Positions 3,143 to 64,000 of a stretch of DNA of 64,000 nt are shown here, one piece after another. The translations under genes and the position numbers were made by a program. How positions within the stretch are numbered: the stretch's first letter is position 1; each line of letters begins with the position of its first letter. The notes under the pieces are model-generated. The model saw nothing but the letters and a program-made list of their open reading frames with translations, searched no databases and was not told the DNA's origin. The DNA is from Raillietiella orientalis (lineage: Eukaryota), in NCBI GenBank assembly GCA_036172245.1, contig JAYWIR010000030.1, positions 310,001 through 374,000 of the forward strand, written 5' to 3'.

Positions 3143-3865
3143 TTAGAATTTCTTGCGATTGGATGAGGTAATGTCTGTGACGGTCCATCTGTCTGTAGGC
3201 GCCTTTTGATAGTCGGGGTCCCAGTCGGAGAAGACGATGATGTGAGGTGCAGGAAAGTATCTGATGGATCCGTGATTCTTGGGATCAAATACGATGCCAT
3301 TTTTTAAACTTTCGATAAATCCGTACTGTACAAGTTCGCGGTTGTCGCGTGTGAGATCTTATAAGGATGATGCACTCACCGTTGTAGAGGTGAGTGGCCT
3401 TCATGCAACTTTGTAGGTAAATGGCTCCTCGTTCGAGGGATTAAAACCTGGCAAAGGTCGTCTTGCTTCAATTGCCTCGTTCATCCTTTATCCGATGAAT
3501 GTTTCGGTCACGTGAAGGTTTCTTGAGGGTGTCGAGGATGGTGAGCTGCCACATTCCCTGAGTCGTAGTCCGAGCATTCGGTTAAGATGATCTGTGTCTC
3601 GGTGTAAACGGAGACATTCTTGGATGAATGTGATACTTTTGCTGCAGAACTTTGCATGGTGGCTGAAGATGTATGGCGCATCCTTGACTGATTGTACGGG
3701 TTGGAGAATCTGGAACGCAAGGGAACATAGTGCGTGATAAAGTGAAAAAGTGGGAGCCCAGCGTGCGAGGATGTCCGTTTTCGTCACCAACTTTTGACCG
3801 AGTCGAGCCCTTCTAGAGTACTTGGTGGTGGCGAAGCACCGGTTGATGTAGGCAGCACACAGCAT
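3143..3865 (-). pseudogene. rep: Endogenous CRESS DNA virus Rep, decayed copy (EVE-A)
   Basis: Manual translation across frameshifts gives MLCAAYINRCFATTKYS (motif I region) ... ILQPVQSVKDAPYIFSHHAKFCSKSITFIQECLRL ... ILDTLKKPSRDRNIHRIKDERGN*SKTTFARF*SLERGAIYLQSC..HLYNGECIIL/DLTRDNRELVQYGFIESLKNGIVFDPKNHGSIRYFPAPHIIVFSDWDPDYQKAPTDRWTV. This is colinear with the Rep at 11.4-12.35 kb. Most of the endonuclease domain (motifs II and III) is deleted. Confidence 0.93.
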
Positions 3866-3931: not shown

Positions 3932-4174
3932 GGCCGAGGAAGAAGGCCGTCTAGCAAATAGTGGCCCTTGACCTTGGTCTTGAAACTTGAGAAACTCTGA
4001 TAAGAGTAGGATTGTTTTCGCGTGGATCGTCACAAAGGGCTGAGTTATCTGTTTGCTGTCAATCAAAGCTGGTAATGGTAACTAATTGGAGCGCCGCGGG
4101 TTTCACAGTGCACATAAAGAGCGGGTCGTTGTGGGTAGTGTTAGTACGTCGTCAATCGGCGGAAGGGGAGGAGT

Positions 4175-5220
4175 GTGTTAGAGTTAGATTGTAGGAGGAA
4201 GAGAACTGCCAAGGATAAGGTGCGGAAGCGTCGTCCGTTGTTAAGGCGTGGTGTCTTCCGTCGTAGAACACGTATACCACGTGGACTCTTTAGACGTGGC
4301 TGGCGGCGTGGTAAGGGGAAAGAAATAGGAAAGCGCGTTTGGAGGAGAGCTTTCACTCGAAGAAGAGTTATTAGAGAGATTAGCACTGTCCAGTGCCATT
4401 TGTTTTCTTGTGCGGAAAATACGATGCGTCGTGGATGTTCGCAGAAGGAATGCAAACGTTTACGTTGTTGGATTTGCTGGAAAAGTGCAAATTTGAAGGA
4501 AATGTTGCAATTTTTCGAAGTGGTTCGTTTGATAGGGTAACGTTAGATAGGAGGGAGATGTTAGTTGTAAGGAGATGTGTCCTGGAACAGGTGAATTAAA
4601 ACGTGTTTCCTATATTATAGAGATCGTGTATTTCTTATGATAATCTAAAAATAAGGGAAGCTCAAATGATGACATGAGATTCAGAGGAACGAGAAAATAA
4701 TGATAGAAAAGATCGCAAGCTACAAAACCTGGAAGATGTGAAGTGATAGTCTGTAAGAAAGAGTAATCCATCTTTCACAAATCTTTGAGTAGTATGAGAA
4801 CTTTCCTGTTGATGAGGAATTCAGAAAATGGAAGAGTTTTCTAACATAGGAAGGTTTAAAACGCATCGATAATGATCTTTGATAACCATCAGTTACTGGG
4901 ATCGATCTTGTCGATCACCCATGTGTCAGTTGAGCAGCAACATCTATCAAGAAATTGTTTTTGAAAAGAACAAGGTGTGTTCGATGTCTAACCGAAAATC
5001 TACAGATTGGTCCCCAAGGAAAAATACCTGCCTAGAGCTTGTTCGTCTGGGATTCCAAGTTTGGCTGCTGAAACAACTCCAATTTTGTGAAAGAGATTCT
5101 CAAATCGCCGAACTGGAAAGCATCCAAGACATTCGAAAGCTCCGTTCCAGGCACCTCTATGCTCACCATCCAAGGAGAGAGAGCGTTGCTTTGAAATTCG
5201 ATGAGGTCCCACAGAAGTGA
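4175..5220 (+). pseudogene. cap: Putative CRESS virus capsid protein remnant, divergent from the Rep of EVE-A
   Basis: Very Arg-rich N-terminal arm (RRKRTAKDKVRKRRPLLRRGVFRRRTRIPRGLFRRGWRRG...RRAFTRRRV). After a frameshift comes TFTLLDLLE...FDRVTLDRREMLV, resembling the start of a circovirus-type jelly roll. Ambisense position relative to Rep. The segment past 4600 is uncertain. Confidence 0.6.
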
Positions 5221-10030: not shown

Positions 10031-11395
10031 GTGGTCACTCCGGGACGTTTATTCCACAAAAAAAGAAACAAACCACAAACTTGGAGGGATATGTATCCCC
10101 TCAAGACACAAGAAATAGTCATGCAAAAAGTTAAACCGGGAAAACCATCGGCACGCAGGCCGGCTTCAAAAAAAGAAGAGAACAAAGGGAAAGGACACAA
10201 AATAGACAAAAAAAAACAAAGGAGGGTGGGGTCTTTGGTACTGAACGTTCCTCTTCTTCTAGAAGCGCCGCTTGACGATGGCGACTTTTCTGGGCAGATG
10301 AGACCCCCTTGCAGCTGCCTTCATAAGGTTGGCAGCTATCCTGGTGGCATCCTTTCGCTGCCAATTCCCTTCGAGCTTACGGCAGGCCATCACGATGGCG
10401 CGGATGCAACAGATTGTTGCGATCACAGCGCCCTTCTTCAGTCCGCCTTCGCTGAAGAAGCATTGCAGCAGGTCGATGGCAGTGTCCTGGAGACGATGAA
10501 GTGCCGAAGAAAGACTCCACCATAACACCTGGAGGTCAGTGCATTCCACAAGAAGGTGCGGAAGCGATTCCTTCGCCCCGCACCTGAGACAGTTCGGGGA
10601 GGCGACTCCCCTGGAAACCAGGTGTCTGAGCTGATTGCACTGGAAGCACCAGTGCAGGACTAGCAGAACATCCTGTTTCCAACGAAGCGGAAACACTGAG
10701 GTGTCCATGCAGAGAGAAGGGACCACGAGTTCTTCGGGGGATACACTAAGAAGTTCACTCCACCGAAGGAGTCCCTTTGCCCGGTGATGAGGAGTGGCAG
10801 CATCCACCAGCTCGCTCGTTTTGCAGCCACTCAGGAATTTTTCGACTCCTGCAATCCTTCAGGAGAACCTCCATCCTGCCGGTTGGCTACTGTTGTTGCT
10901 TTCCCTGAATGAAGACAGCTCTGCGGCCAGAGGTGAGACGGCTACCCGGGACCAAAGCGACTAGTCCTGCAGGATAACTCCTAGCAGTTTGCGTAGGAGA
11001 CCCTGTTGAGGTCGCAGTTGCTCTGGACGCACATCCAGAGCTTCCTGCCGGCAAGTATTCCAGTTATTGGGTCGGCAGGAAATCCAAGGATGGGCTAACA
11101 ACAACGAGGACAGATGCCTCAGAGGGTAGCCAAATCTAGTTCTTCGGCGTAGGTTGCGCGGCAGCAACGAAAGAAGACCTGCACTGCCGACACATCTCTG
11201 GAGGATGTGGCGAGCCGGAGCACACCAGTGAGAAGACCACAATTTCCCACTTAGGAAGAGAAGCTGGAACTGCACCGAGCAGCTCGCCCCATCTTTTTAA
11301 TTCTCTCGGCTGGACACTAGGGGTCGTAGCATCTGTCAGCTCTCCCATGGTCCAGCCGCTCATCATCTTCTCTCTGCCTGCGATACGGCATCCAA
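10031..11395 (-). mobile_element. L1/Tx1-like LINE C-terminal fragments plus 3' UTR
   Basis: DAATP..KGLLRWSELL..PEEL..LHWCFQCN..PNCLRCGAKESLPHLLVEC. A second fragment (GWTMGELTDATTP) abuts and truncates the viral Rep at about 11395. Confidence 0.88.
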
Positions 11396-11399
11396 TCTG

Positions 11400-12349
11400 T
11401 GAGACGATTAGCATCAGAACTGGATATATTTTTGACTGTCCATCTGTCGCTGGACATCTTGTCGTAGTTGGGCTCCCAGTTTGCAAAAACGATGATGTGT
11501 GGAGGCTGGAAGTATTTAATGCTACCTTGGTACTTCGAGTCGAAGATGATGCCGTTCTTGAGGGACTCGATAAACCCGTATTGGACTGATTCTTGGTTGT
11601 CGCGGGTGAAGTCGACCACGATGATTCTTTCACCGTTATAAATATGTGCTACGTCTGCATTTTTACATGAGTGCATGTAAATGGCATATTTTTTCAGATA
11701 AAGGAATTTGGCCATAGTTGTTTTTCCGGCTCCTCCTACTGGATCGTAGTACCAGTATATTTTACGGCTTTCAGGGTTGTGTCTGAAGATCTTTAAAATA
11801 TCCATCTGCCAACTTTTGAGTTGCATTTTTGCGAGTGGGTTAGGATGGGCTTGGCTTCGTGTTAATCTGAAGCATTCTTTAACAAAGTTAATATTTTTAC
11901 TATAAAATTTCGTGTGATTCTTAAGTATGAATTGTTCATCGGCGCCATCTTGAATGAGTGCAGCGGAGTATCTAGTGGAGAAATAGTGTTTGATCTTGTT
12001 GTCATTGGTTTTCGGTACTTACTAATTGTTCGTAGGTTTGAGGCTCGTTATGTCCGTAGGTCCAAGCGTTCTTATCCTGCTTGGTGCAGTACCTCACGTT
12101 GCTTCGTGGTGAGCCTCTCGCCTTTTCCAAGTGGCACTTCTGGAAGGGCTTGCGTCGTAGTCCGGGCATGGTGCGTGGTTCGCGTAGTTGGATGTATCCT
12201 TGGAGATGTGGCGTTCCTGTTTCGGCTGTTTCTTTTCCAATACAGGCGGAGCAGCAGTTTTGACGGCACCAGTTTTTAATTTCTTGGAAGTCTTCATCGC
12301 TGTAATTACAAAAGGTTATACACCAGTTGAAGAATAAGGAGTACGGCAT
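11400..12349 (-). pseudogene. rep: Endogenous CRESS DNA virus Rep (HUH endonuclease plus SF3 helicase), nearly intact (EVE-B)
   Basis: RCR motif I (WCITFCNY), II (TPHLQG), III (YCTK); Walker A (GGAGKT), Walker B (IVVDFTR), motif C (IIVFAN), Arg finger (DRW). Putative intron at 11972-12022, one 4-nt insertion at 11956-11959, and the extreme C-terminus replaced by LINE sequence. Confidence 0.97.
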
Positions 12350-12375
12350 GTTGGCACTTGGTAATTCTGTATATG

Positions 12376-12414
12376 GTGAGACTTGGCTTTCGGCTCTTGA
12401 CGGTGGTTTATATA
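12376..12414 (-). promoter_or_regulatory. Rep core promoter of EVE-B (TATATAAA plus AGTCTCAC)
   Basis: TATATAAA at 12414-12407, AGTCTCAC at 12383-12376, ATG at 12349. Confidence 0.65.
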
Positions 12415-12430
12415 CTGCCCAACTGTGCAG

Positions 12431-12449
12431 TGGTAAGTCGTATTACCCA
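12431..12449 (+). other. Candidate rolling-circle origin nonanucleotide TCGTATTAC
   Basis: 12438-12446 is one mismatch from TAGTATTAC and lies just upstream of the Rep promoter. Only a short TGG/CCA stem remains. Confidence 0.5.
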
Positions 12450-12699
12450 GATACTCGCTGATATCCGAAATCCGTGGGAAAGTGTAAGTAGGTATTATAC
12501 TTTTAGATGTTGATTTTGATATCTGCGCACGTGAATAGCTTTTTTTTTGTAACGCAGATGGCCGGTCGGCCATCAACTCAAGGTCTGGTGAAATCCGACC
12601 ACGTGAAAGGCTCGTGAAGTCGGACGCGCGAGTGCGCGCCAGCGAGAGTGAAAAAGGGTGGGGGGTTTGGTAAATCGTCAGTACGCTGTCGAGCGGGGA

Positions 12700-13315
12700 A
12701 GAGTAAATCCTGCGTGTGCCAGGTGTGGGGAGCGGGAGTCCCTCCCCCACTCCTAGTTGACTGCCCTGCCCTCCGGATTCTTTAAGATCGTCTTGGAACG
12801 GCCCTTGGGATACCGGCTAGTGGCAACCCCAGAGACGTTTACAGTCTTTTCTTCGTGCGGGACGCCCTGAGTCCAGCCACAGCCTTGGCAGCACTTTGCT
12901 GCCTCCGGGGCATCGTGGCGGCATGAAGTGATGCCCAGGACGAAGATGTTGATTCCAACGAGATGGAAGTCATCCCGTATGCAGTTCGCTTCATGCAGAG
13001 AGCTACCGGATGGCGCCAGCCGGGAAGAATGAAGGAGGACCTCGAGGGCATCCTGCAAAGGATGGGCCCTCCCCGTAGTGGAATGTGATCCCTTCCCGGC
13101 CTTCCAAACTCTTTTTTGTTTTCTTTTTCTCAATTTTATTTTTACTTTTGTTTTCTCCCCCATCCCCTTCCACTGCCGAGGAGAGTCACACCGGGCTGCG
13201 TCCCGGTGTCCCGGCAGGTCCGGTGTTGCGTGGCCGTTAGTGAAGCCTTGTACCATGTTTTTTTGTATTGACCAATGCGAAGTTTTAAATAAACGTCCCG
13301 GAGTATCCGGGTGTC
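12700..13315 (+). mobile_element. L1/Tx1-like LINE 3' end
   Basis: NPACARCGERESLPH, C-terminal helix region, structured 3' UTR, AATAAACGTCCCGGAGTATCCGGG terminus. Confidence 0.9.
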
Positions 13316-55410: not shown

Positions 55411-58400
55411 TTTCACCCGGGTTTCGCCGGAGCGTTTATTATAAAAACAAACTTTAACAAAGACGTGCAGTGGCTGGACCATTGCGCCAGCCACGCACGA
55501 AGAAACACAGAGCCCGCCGGGTCACCGGTTCGCAGAACGGTACGGTCCACCACGGCAGCAGGGAGAAGGGGGAAAACAAAAAACTAAACAAAAAGAAAAG
55601 AAAAAATGGGAGGGTACGGGAAGGGATCACAGTTGCTTCTGGGGCCGTTGCATCCTTCGCAGGATGCTGGCAAGCTCTTTCTGCATTCCTGGATCCAGGT
55701 GGGGCCATCGCGACGCCCTCCTCAAGAATTCGGCGGCGTGCTGGATGGCACCCTTATCGCTAGGTCCTCCCGTAGCCTTACTCCAAGCGGCGACGATCCC
55801 GCGGAGGCAGCAGAAGGCTGCTATCGAGGCCGCTGGCCGAAGGGCGTCAGCAACGAAGAGAGCTTTTAAAGCGTCCCTGGGGTTGCCGCAGGGGATTCCG
55901 ATGGCCGCGGTAAAGCGGAACCAAAGGGGCCGAAGGGCAACACAATCCACAAGGAGGTGGGGGAGGGACTCCCGTTCCCCATACCTAACACAATTGGGAT
56001 CGACCGCTTCCCAGGTCCAGTGGTGTCGGCGGGCGTTGCAGGAAAGTCCCCAGTGCTGCAACAGTAGAGCCGATTCCTGCCATTTTAAGGGAGCGTGGAA
56101 GTGTTCATGAGCACCGGTGGCCACTTCAGAAGTTCAATGGGAGCATCGAGCAGCGCGCCCCAGCGCAGAAGTCCATTGGGAGGCGTACTCGGGGTCGCAG
56201 CGTCTGTTAACTGGCCCGTCTTCCACTCTCCTTTCTTCTTCTCCTTTCCGGAGATGGTTACTTTAACCTCCCACTTCGCCGCAACATCGCTGTCCTGATC
56301 TTCCATTAGAGAGGGCAGCTCAGCAGCGAGGGGGGTTCTTCCTGACCACGCTCGCTTCTTCGGATCCTCCAAGATCTCTCGGAGCGTGCAACTTCTGTAA
56401 CACCCAAACAGGAAGCGTCGTTCCTGTTGGGCGCGTTGCATGCCGCACTATGCCTATTTGCGAACGGTTTCCTGCAACCAGGCACTACCGTTCGCGGGGC
56501 GACAGGTGATCCATCCGTGGTTTTTTCGAACCAAGGCAGCCACCCTCTGCAGCTGAAGCCCACATCGGTTGATGCGGGAGCGATGGAGTGAAAGAAAGGA
56601 CGTGAGTCCCGTCTTCCCGGTGGCTTTCTTGACGAGGAGACGTGCAGGGACGCACCAGCAGGTGCACCACAACTCTGGCACAACGGCCAACATCCGGAAC
56701 TGGAGCTGAAGCTCCAGCCGCTCCAACGTGAGTAGGCCGAGACCGCCGTCCCGACGCGGAGCGCACAAGTCCTTCAGGCGGACTTGGGCCCTCCCGTTGC
56801 CCCAAAGGGCGATACGGAGGAGGTCCTTCGTCCACTTTTTAATCCTCTCTGTGGAGGGAGGGGAGGGGGGGGAAACAAAAAGCAGGGAACGGAGGAGAGG
56901 AGTCGCGAACGTGTTCCAAACCGCGGCTCGTTCCTGCAGGAAAAACCTGCCGTCTTGGAACGGGCCGATCGACGTCTCTACTTTTTGGAGGCAGCCGGAC
57001 CACGCTTCCGCAGGGGAATAGTCCCCCAACGGCACACCAAGGTACTTGAAGTACCCCACCGTGGGGATCTCCAAACGGACCCGGTCCTGCTGCCCTCCCC
57101 ACGCCCCACCAACTGGCATCACGGATGACCTCGCCCTGTTCACCGTCAGTCCGGTTCCCCGATTCAGCAGGTCGAAGAAACCCTCGACCGCTGAAGCCGG
57201 GGTGGACATAGGGAGCAGCAGCAGAAGGTCGTCCGCGTATGCTGAAGCCGCAGGCGTACCAGCGCAGTCGTGCGGCAGGTGCGACACAGTTTCCCTGTAC
57301 GCCCTCAGTACAAACTCGAAGTATGTACTGAAGAGCAAGGGACTCAGGCTGTCTCCCTGCCGTATCCCACGCCGCACCGGCATGCCGTGCACGGTCTGTC
57401 CGCTGAAAGAAACGTTGATGAGCGCGTCGCGCCAGCTGGAGCGCAGATAGGCCAATAATGAGGCCGGGAAGCCCAAGCGTTCCAGAAGCTCTAACAGGAG
57501 ATTCTGGTCGACGCAGTCGAATGCTTTCCGCAAGTCGACTGCGACCGCAAGGGCTCCCTCCCCCACCCGATCATCCGACCCATGGCTGACGGACTCACCG
57601 GAATTCCGGCTGAGCATCAAGCCCCTTTCTTGTTGGAGCTCTAGTCAGGTGAAAGCGTGGAACAGGTTCGCCTCCATGCTTCGCCCGGGAACAGCATATG
57701 TCTATTCCGGGCTGATGAAGGCGTTGGCAACCCGTCCCAGCCGCTCTGTCCACAGCTTGGCTAGCAACTTGGCGTCCGCATTCACTATTGTGATGGGACG
57801 CCAGTTGTTCATGCTCCTCAGATCTCCTCCCTTTGAGAGGAGCCGCACCTTTGCCGAGCGAAACGAGGCGGGAACGTCACTTGTTTCACGGATCAGCAAG
57901 GTGAGTTGATGTACCAGGGGAGTAAGCTTAGCCGCGAAAGTTTGATAAAACTCCGCGGGCAGGCCGTCCTCCCCTGGAGCCTTGCGCCTCTTGAGCTTTC
58001 CCATGGCCGAGATGATCTCGCCCATCGTGAAAGACTCGTCGAGGGACTTTCTCTCCTCCTCCCCGATCGCTGGAGCGCCTTCCGGGAGCAAGAGTCGTGA
58101 GACATCCCGCTCGGGAGGCGTTCTTGCGTACAGGGAGGAATAAAAACGCCGCAGCAAGCTGCGGATCTGAGCTGGTGCCGAGTGCTCCTGGCCCTGATCG
58201 TCCAGCAAGCTGGCGGATCCGGACTGCCAGGCTTGCCTCTTGGCTCCCGCTTTGTATTCCTCCAGCCTGCGGATGTCGGGGGTCCTGGCGTAACGTCGGG
58301 CCTGTAGATGCGACCTTTCTTTACGGACCCCGTCCCCAAATCCCGCAGGTAGGCGGTGCAGGGGGAACTGGTCGCAGAACTCCTGGACCGACCGCTTGAA

Positions 58401-58590
58401 GCGGTTCCTGTCCTGAAGTGTCCGCAGCCTGAAGCTACGTATGAACGCACGGAGATGTTCCGCCGCGTCCGGAAGCTTCAGCCAGTCTCCTGGCAAACGC
58501 CACGCTGACGAGGGGAAGGGCCTGTCGCGCGGATGAATCTGGAGCACGATAGGGCGATGGTCGGACAGCTCGGAAGGTACGAAGCAGAAA
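55411..58590 (-). mobile_element. Best-preserved L1/Tx1-like LINE copy (5'-truncated ORF2 with several frameshifts/stops)
   Basis: SDHRPI (end of endonuclease), KAPGEDGLPAEFY, WRPITIVNADAKLLAK, VDLRKAFDCV, GIRQGDSLSPLLF, YADD, KYLGVPL, GGLGL, zf-RVT, full 3' UTR. Confidence 0.96.
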
Positions 58591-61500
58591 CTCGAAAACT
58601 CTCTCTGCAAACCTCTTATGGTGCATCAAGAAGATATAGCTGCAAACCACATCCAAATGAGATCAAAAATGGGCGGAAGATCACCATCAAAAGAATCGCA
58701 AATCCTTTCCAAATCCAGAGCAGCTTCGCAGTTTATGAGTGATTTTCCGATTTCGGTACTTCCATAAATGGAATGCACTTTTATTTCGATTCAGCTGCCA
58801 AATCTGCCATTCGACCCACCGATAATCACGCATTTATTTGTCACAGAGTTGCGGTACATCCTTCATCTTCACCTCCCTATCTAACCTGCCACTATGAAAC
58901 CGCGGATTAATTTCGTCAAATGAAGCTGCATTACTTAAACACACATAGCTCTTGGTTACCAGTCGCTTACCCGAACATTTTTAAAAGTATTCCATATTTT
59001 CCACCAACCACTTGCTCTGCTGAAGCAATGCTTACCCACTGCAAGACCAGATATGTGTCCGCTGGCGTCGTTTCTCGCATGCTGTTTGTGCTTTCAAGAC
59101 TCCCATGGAACCGTGCGTGAATTCACCTTCGTTTCCTCCTCTCTTACCGCGCACCATCATTTGCTTGTAATCTGTCATCGCTCAACTAATACTTATTATT
59201 CATTCATCTGCACTGCACAGCATCATTTGCACTTGAACAAATGCTATTAGAAACCCATGGGTGGAAAAAAGGGATTTTCTTATGGCGCACCCTTCCATCT
59301 CCCTGCCTCATTCCAGCGACAACTCCGTTACCAAGCAACAACACAACGCCACCACACTTCGGTTGTGGGTGGAAGCACCTGCACAGCCACTGAGGTATTG
59401 ATGCTTGCCAAAGTCTGCATTTGGAATTCACGTATTTTCCCTCCAATTTGCCCGGTGCTTTTTCCTCTCCTCCCCGTGCTTGTTGGAAGGTGTTCCTTGA
59501 ACGTACGCTCCTTCTAAAATCCTCGAAAGCAGTACAAGTAGGCGATAGGTGTCAATTTTTTTGCAATATAGAAAATATTGCAATAAATAAATAACTTTTG
59601 CGGTTTCAGTAAGTATCGGGTTCGAATTTAAAGTGTCAATATTCATATGCATTCGTCGACTGCATCAGAAAAGGTTATCTGGACTTAGTATTACTATCAT
59701 ATGCAGACTGTAGTTTTCCCATTGTACTTGACTTACTATCCCAAACAGAACATAAGAATACAATAGGACGAACACATGCATGTTCATACACAGCACTTGT
59801 CAACTGTAGAGGCTACTAGTGGAGATTCTTCACATCAGGACTTCTTTCTTCAGGACATCTTCATTCTTCACATCACAGTAAATTAACAAGTAGTTTACTT
59901 CAAGATGCACGCTGCGACGGGTGTTGCATATCTCAGGTATCAAATAATGTACCCAATGATGGTAATCCTATTGATGGGTTTTACGAAAATATTAGAGTAT
60001 TTGTGTGTGTTTTTTTTTTTAAACACTAAAGCCAATCGCTTATTTAAGAAGTATATTTTCAAGTGAAGTTCTTACTTGAAATTTCGAGATAAAAGAATAT
60101 TGATAAATCAGTACACTGCACAACACGTAGAAACTAGTAGTAGCACATAGAGAAGGATAGAGTAAGGACATTCGTGTCATTCCACCGACATAGAAATAAG
60201 CCTGGTATAACATTAATTACAATGCAAATCACAGGGTAGAGTCATAACTGCAACAGAAAGACTACAAAAAAGTAGAGAAAATCGGAAAGTACATAAATTT
60301 GATTAAATTTTATTATGATGAATCAAGGAAACTCAGTAAGTTGTCAAAACTGATGTGATGACTTCTATACAGACATGGCAAGAATTTGAACTTTTAATGA
60401 TTTTAACAAATGTTATTATAATCCCATGGGTGGAAAAAAAAGGGAACTGCCTTCTGTGTTCGACTTTCTAAAACTCGATATTTTAGTAAGCCAGCAGTAA
60501 AAGGTCTTGATACTTTATTGTAATCAGAAAAGAAAAAAATGGAGATCAGTTGCTTGTAAATGTGGATAAGACTGATTTCTTCCTGAACCCACTAAATGAA
60601 AAGTAAAAGTCCGGAGAAAAACGGAACTGCTTAACTTTGAGTGTTATCAATTGGTTAACAAGTTTTCTCACCTGCTAGTTTTCACACCTGTCACTACTGC
60701 TAGTGAAAAAGATCCGGAGTCAGCAATGCAAGGTTTATTTAATAGGAAAGTCTTCGAACAAGATAAAGTTACACAAAGGGAGAAAGTGACAAAAAAAGGT
60801 TTAACCGTGCTTTCATTTTTATAAAGTAGAATAGTGAAATATTGTTAAGCCATCACAAGGAAACGCATCGGTGGAAACTCCAAAAGATTCGTTACAGAGA
60901 GAAACAAAGATGCCTTGAAATCTTTTATGAGTCAGGAATATTTGAGTATCCATGATTTTGCATCCAGCCGTCGGTAATCACAAGTGTGCGTCTTCCACGA
61001 AGAGCAGAACTGAGGCGCAATCTCTAAAAATGCAACAGGTATGCCGCATTCTATTGCTTTGCAAGAGTGGAAGTAATTATGATGCCGTGAGACGCAAAGA
61101 TTTGACAACTGGCGACACCGTTGCAGAGAACATTGTCCCTCGATCTCACGACACGGCCGTGGGCAAGCAAGGATCTCGTGAAATACCGTGCGCGTCCACT
61201 AATCAGTCATCCTATTCCGAGATGGAGACGGAGACTTCTTCGGCTGCTGGTGAAACTTTCATAGACTTGCGAGGGTGCGAGGGCATCAGCCGAAGACCCC
61301 CAAATGGGAAAAAGCACAGCAAAGATATTAAGTGAGGTATCAAAAAAAATCAGTTCATCAAAGAATTTTGATGCAGGGCTTTAGAAAGCCAGAGCTTTGA
61401 GCTAGTTTCATTTTGTCATTGTATTTTTTCTAAGCGGACGACAGAACATTTAATACACAAGAAGACATTCCCTTAAATCATGAGTTGTTGTTGTATGATT

Positions 61501-62848: not shown

Positions 62849-64000
62849 ATGATGACATTACTACCAAAAACTCATCACGAATTCGCAGATCCAGCATATT
62901 GGGAAGAATTTTTTAAAAAACAACGGACCACATTTGAATGGTAAGGAAGAGAATCAGTAATCAAACTTCAACCACAACTTTAGTCGATGATATGTGATTT
63001 TTGTTTTCTTAAAGGAGGATTTTTATGATTGATTAGATGTTCCTAGCGATGCTTATTTATATAGTTTGTGAGATCAGAAAGCAGTTTCAGGATGAAAATG
63101 AAATTGTGTTTGTTTTTTGCAATTGTGAATCTTCTTTTTTAGGTATGGTAGTTATGAAAAATTTGCAAACCTTTTTGACAGATATATCAAAAAAAACGAT
63201 CCCATTCTTATTGTTGGTTGTGGAAATTCAAATCTCAGTCCAGAATTATATGATAACAGCTACAGGTATAGTTGTATTCCATCTAATGAAATGATTTAGG
63301 ATCTAAATAGGAACCAAGTAAATATAGACACTAGCAAAGTAGTTTTGAAACAGATGAAGAATAAGCATTCTAGAAAGCGACCACTTATGCAGTTCAAGCA
63401 AATGTCTTTAATGAACCTTGAATTTCCAGATGAAAGTTTTTCATGTGTTTTAGACAAGGGCACATTAGATGCCCTTTTTATTGAAAACTCTGAATGCAAC
63501 ATTGTGACTATTGAGAAGGCATTTTGCGTAAGAAAATAATGCATATTCCTTCTGTCTCTAAACTAGGTGCAGAATATTTCACGGGTTTTAACATTTGGTG
63601 GTCGATATATTTGTATATCCTTGCTGCAAAGGCATATTTTGATTAAACTGGTGAATTGGTTTCACTCAAATGGATTTATGATCCAGATTCACAGATGCAT
63701 AGAAGCTGAAGAATACAAGGAACTGAAACTACCAATTTTTATGGTAGTTGCAATGAAGCTGAAGCCAATTTCTGGATGTGTGCCTGTAAGTAGTATTGAA
63801 TTTACACTGTTTGCATCGTTTTCTAAGAAATCATTTGTACTCAGTAGTTCACTTTTAGCCACTTATTCTCAGTTTACAAGGGCAAATGGACAAAGTAGAT
63901 TCAGAGGAAATGTTGATAAATGGTGTGCTCTCTTTGCAACAATATGTCTGGATTACTAATCGGATTCAATCTGGTTCCTTCCATGGTGACAACATTTCTG
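62849..64000 (+). CDS. METTL13: eEF1A lysine and N-terminal methyltransferase (5' part; runs off the window)
   Basis: Exons 62849-62940, 63143-63265, 63311-63527, 63573-63785 and 63859->64000 splice to MMTLLPKTHHEFADPAYWEEFF..FEWYG..ILIVGCGNS..VNIDTS..VLDKGTLDALF..RVLTFGGRYICISLLQRHIL..QQYVW, matching the METTL13 N-terminal domain. Confidence 0.95.

Follow-up and report, generated by a model that had tools for sequence, protein, structure and literature searches.

A short phase-0 intron in the Rep gene of a CRESS-DNA virus lineage preserved as endogenous copies in Raillietiella orientalis

The genome of Raillietiella orientalis carries many fossil copies of a viral replication gene (Rep), and by comparison among these copies a 51-nt segment that splits one of them is a real phase-0 GT-AG intron. 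We analysed a stretch of 64,000 nucleotides (the window) holding two such copies, EVE-A and EVE-B, together with their siblings elsewhere in the genome. Our preferred reading, to which we give a probability of about 85%, is that the segment is a spliceosomal intron of the viral Rep gene, that it was gained before integration and was required for full-length Rep, and that EVE-B itself is dead.

EVE-B lies on the minus strand as a viral insert comprising the intergenic region and Rep, with no capsid gene, at 11380..12700 (ends approximate, from blastn coverage by sibling loci and from window repeats), and is flanked on both sides by decayed LINE-like repeats (a zf-RVT match at 10262-10858 falls under the Pfam cut-off). 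Its exon 1 (12023..12349, 109 codons) encodes the HUH endonuclease domain (PF02407, E 3e-13) and is four codons shorter than in most copies, with 69 nt from motif III to the donor versus 81 nt in siblings. The intron occupies 11972..12022, with GTAAGT starting at 12022 and AG ending at 11972, and contains a TGA (12002..12004) that closes a 115-aa unspliced frame; the position of this stop varies among copies. An earlier note on this DNA had called these ends, the phase and the stop within the segment, and all were confirmed. Exon 2 (11317..11971, with sibling similarity fading at about 11380) encodes the oligomerisation domain and SF3 helicase (PF00910, E 2.6e-4). Upstream of the Rep ATG we found, by eye, a candidate TATA-like element (12407..12414, minus strand), and an origin nonamer-like TCGTATTAC lies at 12438..12446 on the plus strand, opposite to Rep, its hairpin partly lost in EVE-B.

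The two halves of EVE-B are read in separate minus-strand frames, one at 12349-12002 (115 aa) matching Viral_Rep and one at 12018-11317 matching the SF3 helicase. These frames, one base apart, overlap over a few codons, so removing 51 nt leaves the halves unjoined. The distance from the acceptor to the exon-2 anchor is 58 nt in EVE-B and 54 nt in most siblings; four additional bases, a private lesion at approximately 11959..11965 directly after the acceptor, shift the frame, and the spliced frame therefore stops after 11 codons at a premature TGA (11936..11938). The exons had been said to align without gaps beyond the acceptors, a claim that fails here and whose own bracketed alignment conceded the four bases. 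From this comparison we conclude that EVE-B is a dead copy, frameshifted just 3' of its acceptor, from which the 12022/11972 splice would yield no full Rep.

EVE-A is also on the minus strand and retains a decayed exon 2 (3146..3709; oligomerisation domain and helicase, with several frame breaks) that falls inside the family clade described below. It is preceded by an acceptor CAG ending at 3710 and by the 3' part of an intron (3710..3770), and the frame after 3710 shares 38-47% identity with sibling exon 2 across about 50-55 residues. The acceptor proposed for both window copies is thus present in EVE-A, but its donor could not be placed and no endonuclease exon was detectable at the locus. 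Among the 68 junctions compared below, the best DNA match to the EVE-A junction is the 99-nt intron of locus L086, the 3' part being seemingly common to both. Given that EVE-A has neither an endonuclease match nor a placeable donor, and that the spliced frame of EVE-B is broken, the window's two copies alone are inconclusive on the intron. An Arg-rich frame antisense to EVE-A Rep (4145..4540, plus strand) is by its composition a possible capsid N-terminus; it gave no Pfam match and no match to the family capsid. A CACTAT shared by the two copies had been pointed out earlier, and a reading of it as conserved His-Tyr codons of a coding linker was dropped after sibling comparison. In the list of family introns, CACTAT does not recur as a motif. 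Positions 6000-59000 of the window are largely GC-richer decayed LINE-like repeats with reverse-transcriptase-like frames (for example 56454-58625), and both EVEs lie in or beside this tract.

Searching the 210-Mb genome (491 contigs) for relatives gave at least 150 scored helicase matches (606 candidates) and 116 endonuclease matches. Among the best 29 helicase matches besides EVE-B, 20 start within two residues of one point directly after the acceptor. We took 100 loci, namely the best 30 of each search and 40 picked from the tables, mostly with both halves close, and 68 distinct copies covering motif III to the exon-2 His anchor formed the junction set. Rep in this family combines PF02407 (Viral_Rep, HUH endonuclease) with PF00910 (SF3 helicase). 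Siblings also carry an antisense Arg-rich capsid-like frame (307 aa; weak match to Circo_capsid, PF02443, E 1.9e-4, under the cut-off; Atlas 0.96), which had no relative in viral contigs; conserved open Arg-rich frames of about 300 aa antisense to Rep are seen at L011:2225-3103, L017:2169-3089, L004:2199-3149 and in other siblings. The nonamer is antisense to Rep in 36 of 66 copies, with a complete hairpin in one sibling. Virus units occur in tandem or permuted, 1.8-2.4 kb apart (L002, L008, L011/L017, L023, L024), as from concatemer integration. Read in this way, the copies are fragments of small ambisense CRESS genomes, and their tandem and permuted arrangement suggests that these genomes were circular.

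All family rows fall together in both domain trees. The helicase tree has 294 rows, after removal of those under 95 aa and reduction of the circovirus-type ones to 38; its 41 family rows, EVE-A and EVE-B included, form one clade with support 0.996, and the 23 family rows of the endonuclease tree do so with support 0.995. Both clades lie far from the porcine circovirus (PCV) rows, placing the family outside Circoviridae, and Pfam gives Viral_Rep only, not a Gemini_AL1-type Rep. The best identity to outside sequences is about 50%. The host genome has 14 cuticle-protein matches above the Pfam cut-off, and its cox1 reads under the invertebrate mitochondrial code. The family is a single, unclassified clade of CRESS viruses, and its host is an arthropod. 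At L061:246-1586, cox1 has AGA at Ser positions and also at several positions that are usually Gly, possibly reflecting Gly-to-Ser changes or a code oddity; the 54 cox1 matches, spread over many contigs and mostly fragments, appear to be numerous nuclear copies of mitochondrial DNA.

The search for exogenous relatives gave best matches of 31-46% identity (30-45% among the best 150 representatives) and three distant viral contigs. Metagenome contigs yielded no family member by profile or by motif (the one motif hit was not a relative), and a search for short split Rep forms found none. Because no exogenous member was found, we infer the presence of the intron in living viruses from the endogenous copies. 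The ESM Atlas clusters nearest to exon 2 are helicase-only CRESS proteins of about 210 aa, some of which may be second exons of split Reps.

Across the junction set, the two ends of the intron are found at fixed places. In 54 of 68 copies an AG stands at one distance from the exon-2 protein anchor (8 at the next best offset), and a GT stands exactly 81 nt after the motif III Tyr in 32 of 68 (best neighbouring offset, 10). When the donor was placed via an upstream codon pair, blind to GT, 50 of 59 placeable copies had GT there (best other offset, 7); this anchor took the place of global flank alignment, which had put the donor wrongly in divergent copies, EVE-B among them. Both GT and AG are kept in 46 of 68 copies, and in the remaining 22 the GT or the AG is missing or the donor cannot be placed, most of these copies appearing otherwise decayed on an overall view rather than a copy-by-copy count.

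In the 46 two-ended copies the intron measures 31-99 nt (median 46.5) and falls into all three frame classes (21, 16 and 9 copies), whereas on either side the flanking exon part has a length divisible by three in 40 of the 46. After merging near-identical copies into 36 clusters, lengths that are not multiples of three were found for the intron in 22 clusters versus 5 and 6 for the flanking parts (Fisher p 7e-5 and 2e-4, values that overstate independence because the copies are related). The donor reads GTAAG in 24 of 46 copies and has A at +3 in 42 (33/36 clusters, compared with 16/45 exon-2 Val codons). The acceptors are CAG (24 copies), TAG (18) and AAG (4), the TAG being an in-frame stop for exon 2 in all 18 of its copies (16/36 clusters). 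Pyrimidines make up 79% of the bases ahead of the AG, intron GC is 32% versus 42% in the exons, and branch-point-like YTRAY occurs in 26 of 46 copies, scattered and at no fixed position. Longer segments of about 99-210 nt occupy the intron site in the divergent copies L068, L086, L074 and L105.

Intron-less homologues lack the segment. Aligned with its best 60 continuous homologues, one read-through copy with a 42-nt intron has a 15-residue insertion at the intron site, occupied in at most 9 of the 60 while the flanks are occupied in 56-60; the gap and the 14 intron-coded residues lie about four residues out of register. From motif III to Walker A this copy has 121 residues; for 132 of 150 homologues the median is 110. 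The earlier note had proposed asking whether homologous Reps lack the block and whether GT and AG bound it, and both proved to be so. Its claim that splicing gives full Rep is borne out by the 46 two-ended copies and by the gap in the 60 homologues, with EVE-B itself, being frameshifted, the exception.

Exon 2 could be compared between 16 of the 46 copies; over the 46 of their 120 pairs in which dS is finite, dN/dS has a median of 0.10 and a maximum of 1.05, which shows purifying selection; the intron would therefore have belonged to replicating viruses. The intron is found in copies that differ widely, family helicases sharing 39-100% identity with one copy. Because of this spread and of the selection on exon 2, the intron probably predates integration.

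The intron also resembles host introns in size, as had been suggested earlier from host introns of 45 nt. Two introns of this length were confirmed in the window (63266..63310 and 63528..63572, plus strand). Both are contained in a host methyltransferase-like gene at 63143-63790 on the plus strand, which we take to be METTL13-like. Of 22 host introns inferred between chosen neighbouring myosin exons, nine measure 46-64 nt (range 31-453). A motif-distance test for host intron size gave no peak on 200 kb of random genome and, at 50-54 nt, a weak signal on the myosin loci (15 versus 4). The viral median of about 47 nt fits a host short-intron class that is itself thinly drawn, from two read and 22 inferred introns.

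The earlier note placed the intron between the endonuclease and helicase domains. It does lie upstream of the whole helicase, but its position is four residues inside the oligomerisation domain. By phmmer, Asp109 of a read-through copy corresponds to Asp118 of PCV2 Rep, gapless from motif III, and the oligomerisation domain of PCV2 Rep is given as residues 119-157 (PMC8406172). The family donor is phase 0 and follows the fourth residue past this conserved Asp; in the PCV2 contig, GTGAGT directly follows Ala122, 81 nt past the motif III Tyr, and the two donors therefore share one codon and phase. The PDB Rep' chain is identical to Rep up to Ala122 and then diverges; we derived the PCV2 coordinate from this chain and the viral contig because no open paper that we found states it. 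Among the matches listed, 31 of 134 sampled continuous Reps from viral contigs have GT (a Val codon) at the donor site, and two of the 134 have GTRAG, these being the PCV2 contig and its close relative, presumably PCV1.

What an unspliced transcript would encode differs from copy to copy. Fifteen copies have an open exon 1, and their unspliced frames run to 115-412 aa with no shared tail: seven stop within the intron, four stop after a frameshift and four read through in frame. In L010, L047, L023 and L046 a 42-nt intron is in frame and stop-free, and its retention would give Rep with a 14-residue insertion. The 115-aa endonuclease-only product once proposed for the lineage is thus not a family trait, and by these 15 copies the family has no RepA-like conserved short protein. 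The accompanying analogy with mastrevirus and genomovirus RepA is a loose one, for a Viral_Rep (PF02407) protein outside that clade with no fixed short product.

Retention might nonetheless be regulated, the retained form being a functional Rep that binds the origin, lacks a working oligomerisation domain and acts as a repressor or replication partner; this idea adds to the intron reading. Every retention outcome predicted from the frames removes or interrupts the oligomerisation domain (limits from PMC8406172), and the donor coincides with that of PCV2 Rep'. Rep isoforms without an oligomerisation domain are described for TYLCV, EACMV and PNYDV; those of TYLCV repress the Rep promoter, and it has been proposed that such isoforms arose convergently among CRESS viruses (bioRxiv 10.64898/2026.02.19.706752). 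There, as would hold in the family, a splice choice at the endonuclease/oligomerisation boundary gives a full or a non-oligomerising Rep, although their short form is a minor spliced product and the family's would be the retained one. By analogy with PCV2 Rep' and the begomovirus isoforms, an endonuclease-only or oligomerisation-defective isoform is plausible. Taken together, loss of the domain in all retention outcomes and repression by the TYLCV isoforms make a regulatory role possible, though we think it unlikely: no stop or tail is conserved, the donor and acceptor are near consensus, as in constitutive introns, and with a Val codon at the site in 31 of the 134 sampled Reps among the matches listed, the PCV2 match can arise without shared function. 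More speculative, and in our view doubtful, is a general form of the idea, in which the start of the oligomerisation domain would be a convergent splicing switch of CRESS Reps, using the same codon as PCV with the opposite logic, and regulated retention would supply an oligomerisation-defective Rep that shuts down or assists replication.

That the donor was inherited from an ancestor common with circoviruses would account for the same codon and phase, and the best PDB matches of the family endonuclease are indeed circovirus Reps. We consider this very improbable, as the PCV rows come 90th and 107th of 174 when the endonuclease tree is ordered by distance from the family, the family helicase is of another type, and GTRAG at the site is confined to the two PCV-type Reps among the matches listed. 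The simplest reading, and the one that the trees favour, is that the two lineages converged on a frequent Val codon. No same-site intron was found in other CRESS viruses, in 143 and 69 distinct sampled Reps among the matches listed. Five viral contigs (L259, L333, L400, L452, L453) carry candidate GT-AG introns, identified by eye, at three other Rep sites (within the oligomerisation domain, just past motif III and just past Walker A), and intron gain in Rep thus seems to recur.

Could the segment be no intron at all, but a variable coding linker in which stops and frame differences reflect decay after integration? Every copy is to some extent a pseudogene, four of them read through in frame, and EVE-B needs a further lesion under the intron reading. 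Decay of a linker would, however, have had to concentrate frame-breaking lengths in the segment rather than its flanks and to put an in-frame TAG at the same fixed point of 16 of 36 clusters, in a segment that is missing from homologues; we judge this highly unlikely. Equally improbable is that EVE-B is alive through another acceptor used with the same donor. Introns of 28 or 103 nt would match its frames arithmetically, and both AG sites are present, the nearer one common to three close relatives. Yet 28 nt is shorter than all 46 family introns and than the host introns observed, an intron of 103 nt would remove conserved oligomerisation residues, and EVE-B keeps the family acceptor intact while also missing four exon-1 codons and the capsid. 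A programmed frameshift or stop read-through joining the halves, as the overlapping EVE-B frames one base apart might suggest, is less likely still, since siblings occur in all three frame classes, so that no single recoding event fits, and no conserved slippery motif is visible among the listed family introns.

We therefore return to a short U2-type spliceosomal intron, which would have been present in the Rep gene of a small ambisense CRESS-DNA virus lineage of this arthropod before many of its variants integrated. Its excision at phase 0 by the host spliceosome would fuse the endonuclease exon with the one for the oligomerisation domain and helicase, and by comparison this removal would be the only route to normal Rep. 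The intron was probably gained once, on the lineage stem, at the Val (GT) codon that opens the first oligomerisation helix, in apparent convergence with PCV2. Transcripts retaining it would in every case encode a Rep whose oligomerisation domain is missing or interrupted, and for now we treat these as by-products.

Among known systems, porcine circovirus Rep/Rep' (PDB 7LAR, 8H56; PMC8406172, PMC10457769) is similar in its phase-0 GT donor 27 codons past the motif III Tyr and four residues into the oligomerisation domain, its ambisense genome and its Viral_Rep-type endonuclease. The PCV donor is exonic, however, so that the unspliced RNA encodes full Rep and the spliced RNA the short form, whereas in the family removal of a 31-99-nt intron would give full Rep; nor is the family Rep circoviral in either domain tree. 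In the geminiviruses with an intron-containing Rep and in genomoviruses, the intron sits downstream of the oligomerisation domain, and RepA is conserved as a protein. The family intron, by contrast, precedes that domain, in a PF02407 Rep with no Gemini_AL1 match and no conserved short product. What the family would share with these viruses is that full Rep needs splicing and that retention gives a helicase-less product; intron-containing Reps are reported in mastre-, becurto-, capula- and grabloviruses and in Genomoviridae, with circovirid introns treated as a separate gain (bioRxiv 10.1101/687855).

Rep introns have also been predicted in cycloviruses, where some are about 170 nt, and in 36 of 461 cruciviruses, GT-AG introns that likewise split an Arfiviricetes-type Rep (PMC8622408, PMC9241739, PMC7468197). 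Those introns were called from single genomes as described there, whereas the family intron could be compared over many divergent copies. Cycloviruses carry the nonamer on the capsid strand, as the family does. High-copy endogenous CRESS elements are known from arthropods, with about 60 copies in work on the salmon louse and Varroa (PMC3198968, PMC4573495), and the word 'intron' is absent from the main texts of both papers. The present genome resembles theirs in its many independent Rep insertions and differs in its number of helicase matches, at least 150, which are often accompanied by a capsid gene and an origin. A literature search that reached few subscription papers and no bioRxiv supplements found no report of this lineage's Rep intron.

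Rep splicing is a known habit of several CRESS groups and is seen here, through fossil copies, in a new lineage. In practical terms, such Reps risk annotation as two frames or as frameshifted genes. Beyond gemini- and genomoviruses, Rep introns have so far been called from single genomes in the sources cited above, and divergent fossil copies permit a comparative test. A donor on the PCV2 Rep' codon bears on the proposal that CRESS splicing evolved repeatedly at the endonuclease/oligomerisation boundary, and the family intron would be a further independent intron gain in Rep. The copies link an unclassified clade of CRESS viruses to an arthropod, and its intron appears to match the short introns of that host in size.
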